64,000 nucleotides of DNA from Dictyostelium discoideum (GCA_000004695.1 CM000152.2:1920001-1984000); one strand, 5' to 3'; shown: positions 5,209 to 41,164, numbered from the stretch's first letter. Numbers and translations: made by a program. The notes: generated from the letters alone by a model not told the origin.

Positions 5209-6024
5209 TTATTTGTTTTCTTTTAATTTTTTAGAAATTACTTCACTCCATTGTTGAACTTTAATATTTTTAGATAAAAGTTCTTCTAAAATTTCAGAAG
5301 AATTAATATTACAAGGTAAACCTTTAGTCATTGCATCAGTTTTAATGGCAAGATTCATATAATAGAATGCAAACTTTTTGACAGATATAATATCATCTTC
5401 ATCCAATGGTGGAGGTGGTGTTGTTGGTTGTTGAGCTGGTGAAGTTGTGGTGGTTGTAGTGGTTGTAATTTTACTACTACTTGGTTTTTTACCAAATACA
5501 AATTTATGTGATGCTTGAGAGGAGGATGAAGAAGATGAAGATGATGATGACGAAGATGATGATTTTTGTAATTTTGTTAATTCATCTTGTAATTTTGATT
5601 TTTCTTTTTCTAATTGATTAATTTTTGATTCTTGATCTTTACATTTTTTCAAAGCATTATCTAAATCTTTTTTTTGATTTTTTAAACTATTTTTCTTGGA
5701 ATTCTTATCATTTGATGAAGAGAGTAGAATTGAAATTTCTGCTTGTACTCTTTCCAATTGTAAATCGGCATCAGTTTTCTCTTTTTTTAATTGTTCATTT
5801 TCTTGTCTAAATTGTTGGATTTCTAATTGATGTTTTTCAAACTCTAATTTATGATTTTCCAATAATGATTTTCTAGTTTGTTCAAATTCTTTCATTTGAT
5901 TCTTTATATCTTCTCCTAGTTTATTATTGTTAACCTTTAATTTTTGACATTCATCATTTGTTGATTTTAATTCAATTCTAGTTGTTTCTATATCTTTTTC
6001 AAGTTTAACTTTAACTTTATTCAA
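5209..6024 (-). CDS. Hypothetical coiled-coil protein with poly-Ser/poly-Thr linker and a conserved-looking C-terminal ~60 aa (FAFYYMNLAIKTDAMTKGLPCNINSSEILEELL).
   Basis: A single 271-aa ORF on the minus strand. It has a heptad-like K/E/Q/L-rich N-terminal 170 aa, then S18 and T8 tracts. I recognise no named domain in it. Confidence 0.5.
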   Translation of the reverse strand: MNKVKVKLEKDIETTRIELKSTNDECQKLKVNNNKLGEDIKNQMKEFEQTRKSLLENHKLEFEKHQLEIQQFRQENEQLKKEKTDADLQLERVQAEISILLSSSNDKNSKKNSLKNQKKDLDNALKKCKDQESKINQLEKEKSKLQDELTKLQKSSSSSSSSSSSSSSSQASHKFVFGKKPSSSKITTTTTTTTSPAQQPTTPPPPLDEDDIISVKKFAFYYMNLAIKTDAMTKGLPCNINSSEILEELLSKNIKVQQWSEVISKKLKENK

Positions 6025-30233: not shown

Positions 30234-30279
<46 letters not shown>

Positions 30280-34713: not shown

Positions 34714-35838
34714 ATGGCAAGAACGGATAATGTTCAATTACCTTTGGAAAATACAAGTATTGAATTTGAAGAAGAGATTATTGATTCCCAAAATGACATA
34801 TCACAACAAAAAAATTATCAAGATTTTTTAAAAAATATTCCAACTGATTTAAATGAAAGAAAAGAGTATATTTCATCTTTGAAGAAATTAATCAAACTTG
34901 AAAAAAGAAATCATCAACAAATTCAGGGTGAGCAACCAAATCAACAAGAAGGTCTCAATAGTGATCGTCCACCACCAAACCATCATGGTGACCATCACCA
35001 TTCTCTACCTCCTCCAAATCATCATGGTGACCATCATCACCATTCTCAACCCCCACCAAATCATCATGGTGATCATCATCACCATTCTCCACCTCCACCA
35101 CACCATCATGGTGGTCATCACCATTGTCCACCACCACATCATGGTGGCCATCACCATTGTCCACCCCCTCCACCACACCATCATGGAGGCCATCATCACC
35201 ATTGTCCACCCCCACCACACCATCATGGAGGTCATCATCACCATTGTCCACCACCTCCACCACCACACCATCATAGTCATCATCACCATTGTCCACCACC
35301 TCCACCACCACATCATCATGGAGGCCATCATCACCATACTCCACCACATCCTCCACCACATCACCATGGAGGCCATCACCACCATTGTCCACCATCGCCA
35401 CACCATCATGGAGGCCATCATCACCATAGTCCACCACCTCCACCACCACATCACCATGGGGGCCATCATCACCATTGTCCACCTCCACCACATGATGGCA
35501 ATGAATATCTACCACAATCTCAAACTAATATTGAACAATGTATCTGTCGTTTAAATAGAAAGAAAGAATTATTAATTGCAAAGATTCAATCTATTGATTC
35601 AATAATTTACAATTTGGAATGTTTAAACAAACAAAATTACCAAAACAATTATTTACCATCAATTCAACTACAACCAACCCAACAACCACAACAACCACAA
35701 CAAACATCAATTAAACCACAACAAATGTGTCAACAATTTTTTATTCCCCAAACTCCAAATTTCCCCCAAATGAACAATTCTGCACCACTAATGTATGTCT
35801 CTCAAATTCCAGTCCAACAATCATTCAACAATAATTAA
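34714..35838 (+). CDS. His/Pro/Cys-rich tandem-repeat protein (about 15 units of PPPP-HHHGGHHHH-C) with a Q/N-rich C-terminal tail. Putative metal-binding protein.
   Basis: A single 374-aa ORF. The repeat block is 34970-35500. The first 3 units read PPNHHGDHHH(H)S, the later units CPPPP(P)HHHGGHHHH. The N-terminal 90 aa and C-terminal 110 aa are non-repetitive. Overlapping antisense and alternate-frame ORFs on the track are repeat artefacts. Confidence 0.6.
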   Translation: MARTDNVQLPLENTSIEFEEEIIDSQNDISQQKNYQDFLKNIPTDLNERKEYISSLKKLIKLEKRNHQQIQGEQPNQQEGLNSDRPPPNHHGDHHHSLPPPNHHGDHHHHSQPPPNHHGDHHHHSPPPPHHHGGHHHCPPPHHGGHHHCPPPPPHHHGGHHHHCPPPPHHHGGHHHHCPPPPPPHHHSHHHHCPPPPPPHHHGGHHHHTPPHPPPHHHGGHHHHCPPSPHHHGGHHHHSPPPPPPHHHGGHHHHCPPPPHDGNEYLPQSQTNIEQCICRLNRKKELLIAKIQSIDSIIYNLECLNKQNYQNNYLPSIQLQPTQQPQQPQQTSIKPQQMCQQFFIPQTPNFPQMNNSAPLMYVSQIPVQQSFNNN

Positions 35839-37080: not shown

Positions 37081-37559
37081 ATTTTTTTTAATTTTTTTTT
37101 ACTTTTATAATTATTAAATCTTATAAATATTTAATTTTAAATTGAAATAAAAAATAAATAAAAAAAATCCATATTTATATCTTTTTTTTCTAAATAATTT
37201 TAATTTTATTTAATTAAAATTTAATTTAATACATCTTTATTTTTAAAGAAAACAAGCAAAAAAATTTTTTTTTTTTTTTTTATTCATTTTTGTGTTTCCC
37301 ACATGGATAAGAATATTCCCAAAAATTAAAAAAAAAAAAAAAAATTCTTCTTAACAAGATTAAACCCAAATAAATGAGAATATATACCAAATAACAATTT
37401 CTTTTTTAATCATTTTTTGAAAAAATTTTTTGTTCTCTTAAAAAACTTTTTATCTTTTTTTTTTTTTTTTTTTTCCTTTCTGTTTTTTTTTTTTCTCTTA
37501 AAAAAACTTTTTATCATTTTTCTTTTTTTTTCCTTTCTGTTTTTTTTTTTATGAAATGA

Positions 37560-38694
37560 TCGAAATATATAAAATTAAGTTATAACTATGAAAATATTCC
37601 AGATATACAAATTACTAATGGTGAAAATGATGTTATTTTTAAATATGTTTTTAAAAATGGTAGGGACAAGAATAAACAACCTTCAAATTTATCTTTAGTT
37701 TGTTGGAATTGGTTTCAATTAAATTCAAAGCTATTCTATAAAATAGGAAAAATAAAAATTAAACAGAAAACATTTAATAATATTTTATTTTATCACGAAT
37801 ATCTTCCATATAATAGAAACATTAGAAACAAGACCACCTTTTACTCTCCAATCAAATCTCAATTTCAAGGAAAAAAAGAAGAAATTGATTCAACCAAATT
37901 TTCAAAATATAAATTATTAAATTTTAATTATGTTCAAAGTGTAAATTCATATCTACTTCCATTAGAATCAATATTTAAAACTTTTAAAAATATTAAACAA
38001 ATAAAATTATCACTATTCTTACTTCCAATTGAAATTGTATTAGATAGTATAAAAACAATTTTAAAATATCAAACAAAAAATGAACTTTCATTTTATTTAG
38101 AATATGAAACTAAAAAACTACCAGATTCAGTGGATTCATTAATTATGGAGGAATCCACTAGTAAAGAATTTTATTATTGTGATTATTTACTATTTAAAGC
38201 ACCAAACATTTATAAACAAAAAATGTTTAGACAATTGAAATTTATCGAGTTAATGAATCCAATAAAATTACATCTAAAATCATCACATCATTCTTTTACA
38301 AAAGAATTTTTCAATGGTTGCAATACATTGAAAAGCTTTATTTTTGGTGGTGATTTTTTGGAATTACAATCTTTAAATATGGCAATTGAATCATCAAGTT
38401 TAATAGAAACCATTAAAGCAAAGTTCTTATTTCATGATTTACATTATCATTTAGAAGATCCAACGTTTGTTAATGGAACTCAATTAGAACCACTATATCG
38501 ATTCATTTCCATGTAGTTACTATAAACCTGAAGTACCTTATGATTATTCATTTACAAACTATTTCAATCATTTTAAACGACTTTGTGAAAATCTTAAAAA
38601 TACTAAAACTTTAAAACATTTGAATTTAAATAATTATTGTTATAAACCAATTTCAAGATGTAAAATTAGATCCAAACCAAATAATAATAATAGA

Positions 38695-38763
<69 letters not shown>

Positions 38764-39219
38764 TTATGTAATTCAAATTTATATTCAAGTTTTTTTAATT
38801 CACTTGAATTAAATAGTTCATTAACAAAGTTAGTAATTTCAAATTGGAGTTTTGAAAATGAAACACCAGGATTAATAGATTCACTTTGTAATAATAAATC
38901 AATTATAAACCTATCACTAACTAATGGTGCATTAAGAGGTGATATAGATTTACCATTAGTTTCTAAATTATTAATATCATCAAGTACAAATAGAATTTTT
39001 ATATTAAATATATCATTTAATTATTTCACTGATATTGATAATTTAATTAAAATTATTAATGATTCAGAACCAAATTTAAATAGATTATTAATTTTAAAAA
39101 TTAATGGTTTTTGTCAATATTCAATGCTTGATAATTTAACAATAGTACGACCACAGGTTAAAACAAAAAATGATATCAATAAAACTTGTCAATTTGAATT
39201 AAAAATTGTCAAAAATTAA
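37560..39219 (+). pseudogene. LRR-like protein locus with a broken frame. Frame-0 ORF 37560..38516 lacks any ATG. A frame+1 ORF 38487..39219 overlaps it by 30 nt and contains leucine-rich repeats.
   Basis: Frame 0 is open for 319 codons after the TGA at 37557-59, with no ATG/TTG/GTG/CTG until 38130. Frame +1 opens at 38490 and runs through PCSYYKPEVPYDYSFTNYFNHFKRLCENLKNTKTLKHLNLNNYCYKP...LELNSSLTKLVISNWSF...INLSLTNGALRGDIDLPLVSKLLISS...ILNISFNYFTDIDNLIKII (LRR consensus LxxLxLxxN). No AT-rich intron-like sequence separates the two frames. Confidence 0.35.
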
Positions 39220-39524
39220 TTCAAATATTAAAAATAGAAATGTTAAAATAAGAAATTATGAACCCTTTGATTATATAGGTATTAAAAGATTTAAAATAAA
39301 AGAGTATTTTTAAAAAAAAAAAAAAAAAAAATTATAAATTATAATTTCTTTTATTTATTTATTTTATTTATTTATTTATTTTATTTATATACATATTTAT
39401 TTAATTTTAAGTATTTAAATTTTTTTTTTTTTTTTTTTTTTTCTTTGTTCTTTGTTCTTTTATCACACCAATAGTTCAATTATTTGTTGGAAGTTGTGAG
39501 TATATTACAAATATAATCACACAT

Positions 39525-40302: not shown

Positions 40303-41164
40303 ATTAATATAAAATATTATGAATATTGTGGTAGTAGGTTATTTTTAAAATAGAAAATAGAAAATAAAAACAAAAAAAAAATATTAATACTTACAGTAGC
40401 AGCAGTTTGTTCATTAAAAGATCCGACTTTTTGTAACTCTTTAAAACATTCACCACCTTTGGCAAATTCAATAATTAAGAAAACTCTTTTATCATCATAA
40501 AAATATCCAAATAATCTTAAAATATTTGGATGTCTTTTTTTAGTAAAAAAAAAAAATTATTATTATTATTATTTTTATTATTAAAAAATTAAATTAGTAA
40601 ATTTGTTTTTATTTTTATTTTATTTTTATTTTTATTTTGAAAATATTTTCACTAAAATTTATATTACCTTAAATGAGATTGAATTTCAATTTCCCTTCTT
40701 AATTGATGCTCTATATTATGTGTTTGTAATTGATTTTTAAATAAAACTTTGAGTGCAACAATGAATTGACTCTTTTTCTCCCTTGCTAAATAAACGTGAC
40801 CAAATCTACCCATTCCTAATAATTTACCAATATCAAAATCATCAATACACCATTTTTTCTTTGGTACTGATTGAGATGATGAAGATGAAGATGAAGATGA
40901 GGATGAAGATGAAGATGAAGATGAAGATGAAGATGAAGATGAAGATGATGCTGTTGTTGTTGGTGGTATTGTTGAAGTATTAGTTGATGTAGTGGCCCCA
41001 GTTGTTGTTGGTTTTGTAATTGTTGATTTAACAGTCGATGTTGTTTGATGATTATTTATATTTGTATTTTGTTGTTGAAGTACTCTTTGTGGTTGTTTAC
41101 TTGGTACTGAGAATGAACCACCACCAATATTGTTACTATTTTCTTTATTATTTGGATAACTCAT
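39542..41164 (-). CDS. aurK: Aurora kinase (Ser/Thr protein kinase). Exons 41164..40668, 40533..40395, 40269..40174, 40065..39781, 39679..39542.
   Basis: [202 protein letters not shown]...[27 protein letters not shown] is near-identical to Aurora-A/B. All four introns have GTAAGT/GTAATA/GTATTT donors and (T)nAG acceptors, and exon phases are consistent. The N-terminus carries a 27-Ser tract. Confidence 0.85.

Follow-up and report, generated by a model that had tools for sequence, protein, structure and literature searches.

Organization of the locus

The locus analyzed here lies on the plus strand of a 64,000-nt stretch of Dictyostelium discoideum DNA (the window, from whose first letter all positions are counted). 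The window has a G+C content of ~22%, encodes poly-Asn tracts and is rich in T between genes, a combination that marks a group-4 Dictyostelium genome. Around the locus, GC is 20-22% in coding sequence and 11-13% between genes. Two long frames overlap at the locus. The upstream one, which we call frame 0, follows a TGA stop at 37557-37559, is open from 37560 to 38513 and closes with TAG at 38514-38516. A preliminary description of this DNA had given the same limits, with a length of 319 codons that we correct to 318 codons plus the stop. It had also described the frame as startless, and we find the same: no ATG, GTG or TTG occurs upstream of 38130, where the codon is GTG, and an in-frame ATG first appears at 38145. 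The other frame (frame 1) is open from 38488 to 39219, as had been reported, but its overlap with frame 0 is 29 nt and not 30.

Such open frames are far above chance expectation. In 2000 shuffles of 37560-39313, the longest open frame had a mean of 54 codons and a maximum of at most 120, compared to the 318 codons observed. Searches of the region for tRNAs and Rfam families returned no features.

Intact orthologs at the same position

The conceptual fused protein, obtained by joining the translations of the two frames, matches only two proteins among 5.8 billion. These are KAN0049914.1 of D. dimigraforme (ACTA71_003012; 598 aa, 52% identity, 94% coverage) and KAK5582637.1 of D. firmibasis (RB653_004222; 584 aa, 48% identity). 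The preliminary description had suggested a search of related species for an intact ortholog, and the gene is intact in both: each ortholog is one continuous ORF of ~600 codons without an internal intron. One caveat to this search is that the protein collection apparently lacks the source species' own proteome, as the first exon of the well-studied Aurora-kinase gene (40664-41164, minus strand) gave no 100% match, so that the missing same-species match says nothing about annotation or paralogs.

The neighbors of both orthologs match those of the window in order and orientation, with a Cys-rich gene upstream and the Aurora-kinase gene, which is on the minus strand in the window, and the next gene downstream. 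Because the flanking genes are the same, the window locus is the positional ortholog of a single gene. In D. dimigraforme, a 325-aa DDE transposase gene (PF01609/PF13359; L001 4116-5442) is found between the ortholog and the Cys-rich neighbor; neither the window nor D. firmibasis has it. The window also holds, at 34714-35838, a single-exon ORF of 374 aa that consists mostly of His/Pro repeats (HHGGHHHH-CPPPP units), and the same product is called in a second assembly, GCA_054883475.1. In exact look-ups, the 374-aa ORF was not in the protein collection and a 128-aa window ORF was not on record.

When the frame changes described below are repaired, the translation of the window copy is 52% identical to the D. 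dimigraforme protein and 48% identical to the D. firmibasis protein over ~95% of the length. All three share the SLVCWNWFQ motif, the NKSI(T/I)NLSL...SFN.F...LKING repeats and the C-terminal FKIKE(F/Y)F. The window copy differs from the orthologs in lacking two stretches of coding sequence, of 29 nt and 44 nt, plus ~10 codons in frame, in carrying a poly-Asn expansion encoded by (AAT)28, and in being untranslatable as one protein.

Family and predicted fold

A profile search of 1.84 billion representatives recovered, besides the ortholog cluster itself, only an 82-aa fragment of this locus and one distant relative, Heterostelium album PPL_01544 (E 6.7e-5), with no larger family. With PPL_01544 as the only distant relative in this search, the family is dictyostelid-specific and fast-evolving.

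The label 'LRR-like' that had been given to the locus is weakly supported. Nothing in Pfam, LRR and F-box models included, reaches threshold in the two window frames, the two orthologs or the Heterostelium homolog, and matches by structure or profile also fall below threshold. The Heterostelium homolog has a sub-threshold F-box-like match over its SLSLVCWRWF motif (E 0.09, 13 bits versus a cut-off of 24.3). The AlphaFold (AF2) model of the D. dimigraforme protein, which is of low confidence (mean pLDDT 45.7), shows strand-helix repeats from residue 146 on, with a predicted period of ~27-30 residues. With this low-confidence model as query, Foldseek ranks NLRP LRR domains, ribonuclease inhibitor, COI1 and SKP2 highest, at E 1.4e-3 or worse, and the profile finds weak matches among PDB sequences to the LRR proteins DRC5 and NLRX1 and to an LRR protein (E 0.012-0.15).

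The alternating strand-helix repeats predicted for the orthologs would resemble those of F-box and RNI-type LRR proteins (FBXL/SKP2, COI1, ribonuclease inhibitor, NLR). However, no member of the present family has an above-threshold Pfam model, and all structure and profile matches are at E >= 0.001. An F-box-like plus RNI-type LRR protein is no more than a reasonable guess.

Three changes of frame

In a tblastn comparison with the window, the matches to either ortholog fall into three collinear HSPs, each in the next frame. The HSP in frame 0 (37563-38498) covers ortholog residues 13-342 and has 49% identity to D. dimigraforme and 45% to D. firmibasis, and that in frame 1 (38503-39171) covers residues 359-567 with 56% and 49% identity, respectively. 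The last HSP, in frame 2 (39203-39310), covers residues 562-598, the C-termini of both orthologs. The relic as a whole spans 37556-39313 and runs through frames 2, 0, 1 and 2 (Table 1). Its four homologous segments contain no in-frame stop in a total of 584 codons.

Table 1. Features of the relic and its 5' flank, in window coordinates
Feature	Position	Strand	Details
T-rich tandem duplication	37426..37550	+	TRF period 57, 2.1 copies, 88% matches, score 184
Relic start codon and first 8 codons (MIEIYKIK)	37556..37579	+	frame 2
Lesion 1	37579..37580	+	29-nt gap versus both orthologs (DNA alignment); frame 2 to 0
Frame-0 homologous segment	37578..38498	+	307 codons, ortholog residues ~18-342; contains conserved SLVCWNWFQLNSKLF motif
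Lesion 2	38499..38502	+	net 44-nt gap (~16 codons); frame 0 to 1
Frame-1 homologous segment	38503..39201	+	233 codons, ortholog residues ~359-560; LRR-like repeats
(AAT)28 tract	38680-38763	+	TRF; poly-Asn of ~28 residues inside the frame-1 segment
Lesion 3 region	39105..39209	+	net +19 nt versus D. firmibasis, +37 nt versus D. dimigraforme; frame 1 to 2
Frame-2 C-terminal segment	39203..39313	+	SKINSNIKNRNV...FKIKEYF; ancestral stop TAA 39311-39313

At the DNA level, the ATG at 37556 pairs with the start codon of D. dimigraforme; in D. firmibasis its counterpart is an in-frame ATG upstream of the annotated start (MFEIIKNN). Lesion 1 falls right after this conserved start, and frame 0 is therefore left without a start codon. 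Translation from the ATG ends after nine codons, at TAA 37583-37585.

Lesion 2 is the break that the preliminary description had reported. The HSPs stop on one side of it, at 38498, and resume on the other, at 38503; the breakpoint is ambiguous within 38489-38503, and the alignment gaps amount to 39 + 5 columns versus both orthologs. The codons lost here correspond to ISEMMFSDQPQPIPFK in D. dimigraforme and lie between conserved anchors, in sequence that is non-repetitive. The long form is also that of the Heterostelium homolog, so lesion 2 is a deletion on the window's lineage.

Lesion 3 can be located only to 39105-39209, a poorly conserved region bounded by LKINGF (~39105) and SKINSN (39209). 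Both length differences in this region are 1 mod 3. Beyond the lesion, frame 1 meets a stop at TAA 39217-39219, and the frame-2 C-terminus reads NSNIKNRNV...FKIKEYF, with its TAA at 39311-39313 aligned to the D. dimigraforme stop.

The single +1 frame break described previously is thus real, at 38499-38502, but it is one of three, and the start codon is not lacking but present and severed by the 29-nt gap. The ancestral start at ATG 37556, the break near 39105-39209 and the frame-2 coding sequence that runs to TAA 39311-39313 had all been missed.

At the site of the (AAT)28 tract, both orthologs have ~20-30 non-repetitive residues instead, and on this alignment the tract is a lineage-specific trinucleotide expansion. 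Upstream of the relic start, we also find the 55-bp tandem duplication reported before (37436-37490 and 37496-37550), whose copies agree at 47 of 56 aligned columns. DNA alignment places a T-rich tract at the equivalent position in the orthologs, with no duplication. The duplication sits in the former promoter/5' region and is probably incidental.

A second assembly and a second haplotype

A ~13-kb stretch around the locus is 99.6% identical to CM142509.1 (6.43 Mb) of assembly GCA_054883475.1. An indel at 38480-38520 had been proposed as a point to check in an independent assembly; the two assemblies do not differ there and are identical over 37400-39400. Elsewhere they differ in the lengths of A/T homopolymers at 30239, 31019, 31400, 31627, 36347, 39526, 41184 and 41363, where the window is longer by 1-17 nt. 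The other difference is a CC/TG dinucleotide at 40997-40998, which would alter a residue encoded by the N-terminal, Thr/Ser-rich exon of the Aurora-kinase gene.

The 82-aa protein from the profile search is encoded at this same locus on a Logan contig. Together with a sibling, it leads to seven Logan contigs from seven sequencing runs (SRR28564541-3 and SRR26869246/57/67/68), all of one haplotype that is 98.8% identical to the window. The Logan contigs cover 37509-38715, and all short-read contigs break at the (AAT)28 tract. Lesions 1 and 2 are present in this second haplotype exactly as in the window; lesion 3, which is beyond the coverage of the Logan contigs, is seen in the window and in GCA_054883475.1. 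The second haplotype has two further disruptions: at 37761 a nonsense change (AAA>TAA), and after 38361 an insertion of 4 nt, at a point where the window keeps the ancestral in-frame state.

Nine substitutions distinguish the haplotypes: eight are missense, one is nonsense and none is synonymous. Under neutrality, for which ~19% synonymous changes are expected, zero of nine has P = 0.15, compared to ~0.001 at an omega of 0.2. When metagenomes were scanned with the invariant 21-mer GTTTGTTGGAATTGGTTTCAA, one contig came up, which is unrelated (35% GC, no protein homology).

Selection and timing of the probable loss

In a three-way alignment, this gene has 93 amino-acid changes unique to the window lineage, 47 unique to D. 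dimigraforme and 64 unique to D. firmibasis. The corresponding counts for three neighboring genes are 39, 50 and 84, with the window having the fewest (Fisher p = 3e-6). By the Nei-Gojobori method, dN/dS is 0.39 between the intact orthologs, which in these alignments shows purifying selection, and 0.58-0.62 for the pairs that include the window. The substitutions are those of a neutrally decaying sequence, with constraint on the window copy relaxed or absent.

A rough three-taxon split of the pairwise values, made by hand, puts dN/dS at ~0.9 on the window's branch. If a long neutral phase explained the excess on this branch, ~20 stops would be expected, whereas 0 are seen. We conclude that most of the acceleration predates the inactivation, or that the estimate is biased by AT-rich composition. 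The haplotypes differ by one indel for nine substitutions, and at this ratio three indels correspond to ~27 substitutions, for which ~1.9 stops are expected and P(0) = 0.15. The absence of stops is thus compatible with a pseudogene, but is no proof of one.

Two observations bracket the time of inactivation. Because this haplotype has no nonsense codon in its 584 homologous codons, we infer that the inactivation was fairly recent. Because lesions 1 and 2 are common to both haplotypes, it should be older than the split of haplotypes that differ by ~1%.

A probable gene loss in this lineage

Our analysis supports the view that 37556-39313 on the plus strand is a putative unitary, non-processed pseudogene of a dictyostelid-specific single-exon gene of ~600 codons, and as judged from sequence comparison we are highly confident in this reading. 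A decaying gene with a real frameshift was among the possibilities raised in the preliminary description, and the intact syntenic orthologs and the three frame changes bear it out. The ancestral protein carried in its N-terminal part a conserved SLVCWxWF motif that may be F-box-like, and after it beta-alpha repeats that may be of the RNI-type LRR kind. Three indels have moved its coding sequence from frame 2 to 0, to 1 and back to 2, with no frame left that could give the ancestral protein, and the locus would have been drifting neutrally ever since an inactivation that preceded the haplotype split.

The locus is like other unitary pseudogenes in several ways. Sister species have intact single-copy orthologs at this position; more than one indel disrupts the frame; the second haplotype has further disabling mutations and an all-non-synonymous pattern; and the promoter region and the start and stop codons are still recognizable. 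Nothing essential is unlike, and the lack of nonsense codons in this haplotype points to a recent loss. The loss is an ordinary, fairly recent one, a known type of event.

Alternative explanations

A functional gene could underlie the broken frames if short GT-AG introns that bridge the breaks had been missed. GCA_054883475.1 in fact annotates a 467-aa gene at window 37657-39219 (L003 8934-10496), and exactly one two-intron solution fits both its coordinates and its length, with introns at 37660-37766 and 38465-38516; this structure is our reconstruction, inferred from those two properties. Its first exon, however, would be a bare ATG, and the first intron would delete SLVCWNWFQLNSKLF, the most conserved motif of the family. 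Both candidate introns delete residues that are conserved in, and translated by, the orthologs, which are intron-less and translated in frame through both regions. Nor are the candidates AT-rich, at 24% and 33% GC compared to 20-22% in coding and 11-13% in intergenic DNA; the second, 52 nt long with a GTTTGT donor, is the one at 33% GC, above the coding average. The model also omits the conserved frame-2 C-terminus, and the second haplotype has a stop codon and the 4-nt insertion within its exons. We therefore regard a spliced functional gene as very unlikely and the 467-aa model as probably a gene-predictor artefact. Two shorter candidates were rejected separately, a 24-nt 'intron' at 37579-37602 as too short and a 48-nt 'intron' at 38469-38516 as too short and leaving the frame unchanged. 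The suggestion of two genes, or of a missed upstream ATG exon, does not survive comparison with the orthologs, both of which are one single-exon ORF, or the identification of ATG 37556 as the start codon. Another earlier suggestion was a single-base indel near 38480-38520, introduced by sequencing or assembly into an otherwise intact gene. The genome is AT-rich and homopolymer-filled, and outside the locus the two assemblies do give different lengths for long homopolymers, but the second assembly is identical to the window over 37400-39400 and the same break is found in seven contigs from independent read sets. Moreover, the lesion is not one base but a net 44-nt gap in non-repetitive sequence, two further frame changes accompany it, and a 98.8%-identical haplotype cannot derive from one erroneous reference. 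The chance of such an error is negligible.

Programmed +1 ribosomal frameshifting, or some other recoding, would have to carry ribosomes through all three breaks. As in known +1 frameshift genes (antizyme, Ty1/Ty3 and the AAA-UAA sites of Euplotes), every shift here is +1, with the upstream frame stopping inside the overlap, and the homologous segments are stop-free. Here, however, homology moves to the new frame 1-5 codons ahead of each 0-frame stop (e.g. at SFPC and SKI), the three break sites have no common motif, and the orthologs are read in a single frame with no conserved shift site. Ancestral sequence is missing at lesions 1 (29 nt) and 2 (44 nt), and the second haplotype, with its nonsense codon and 4-nt insertion, gives no sign of purifying selection. 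Recoding, which had been named as one possible cause of the break, is scarcely conceivable under these observations. A locus that is broken as the ancestral gene could still function, either through a shortened protein, such as one that starts at ATG 38145, or through a non-coding or regulatory transcript. An ORF of 123 aa does begin at 38145, and gene callers predict products of 82-87 aa on the Logan contigs. But this ORF has neither the N-terminal motif nor the C-terminal repeats, the 4-nt insertion in the second haplotype reduces it to an 82-aa product whose tail differs, every haplotype difference alters the protein, and there is no Rfam or tRNA match. From the sequence comparison, such residual function appears quite improbable. 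It is also conceivable that the loss is polymorphic and not fixed, such that a fast-evolving gene, possibly of the F-box/LRR type, is still dying and intact alleles might segregate in the wild, in the manner of the presence/absence polymorphism known for recognition or immunity genes. The basis for this idea is that omega is raised on the window's branch, yet this haplotype has no nonsense codon; we consider it improbable as well.

Consequences for annotation

With a putative unitary pseudogene as the preferred reading, the locus should be marked as a pseudogene, and the 467-aa two-intron model should not spread as a protein. The locus would provide one dated case of lineage-specific gene loss in a social amoeba and a small datum on indel-driven decay in an extremely AT-rich genome; it raises no new mechanistic question.

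The D. firmibasis gene model (L002 5959-7841) probably needs correction at both ends. Its start is probably 14 codons late, as the D. dimigraforme start has its aligned counterpart in an in-frame upstream ATG at 5959. At its 3' end, a dubious 86-nt intron removes the conserved C-terminal KNFKIKEF. The uninterrupted D. firmibasis ORF has no stop at the conserved position and extends 17 codons further.
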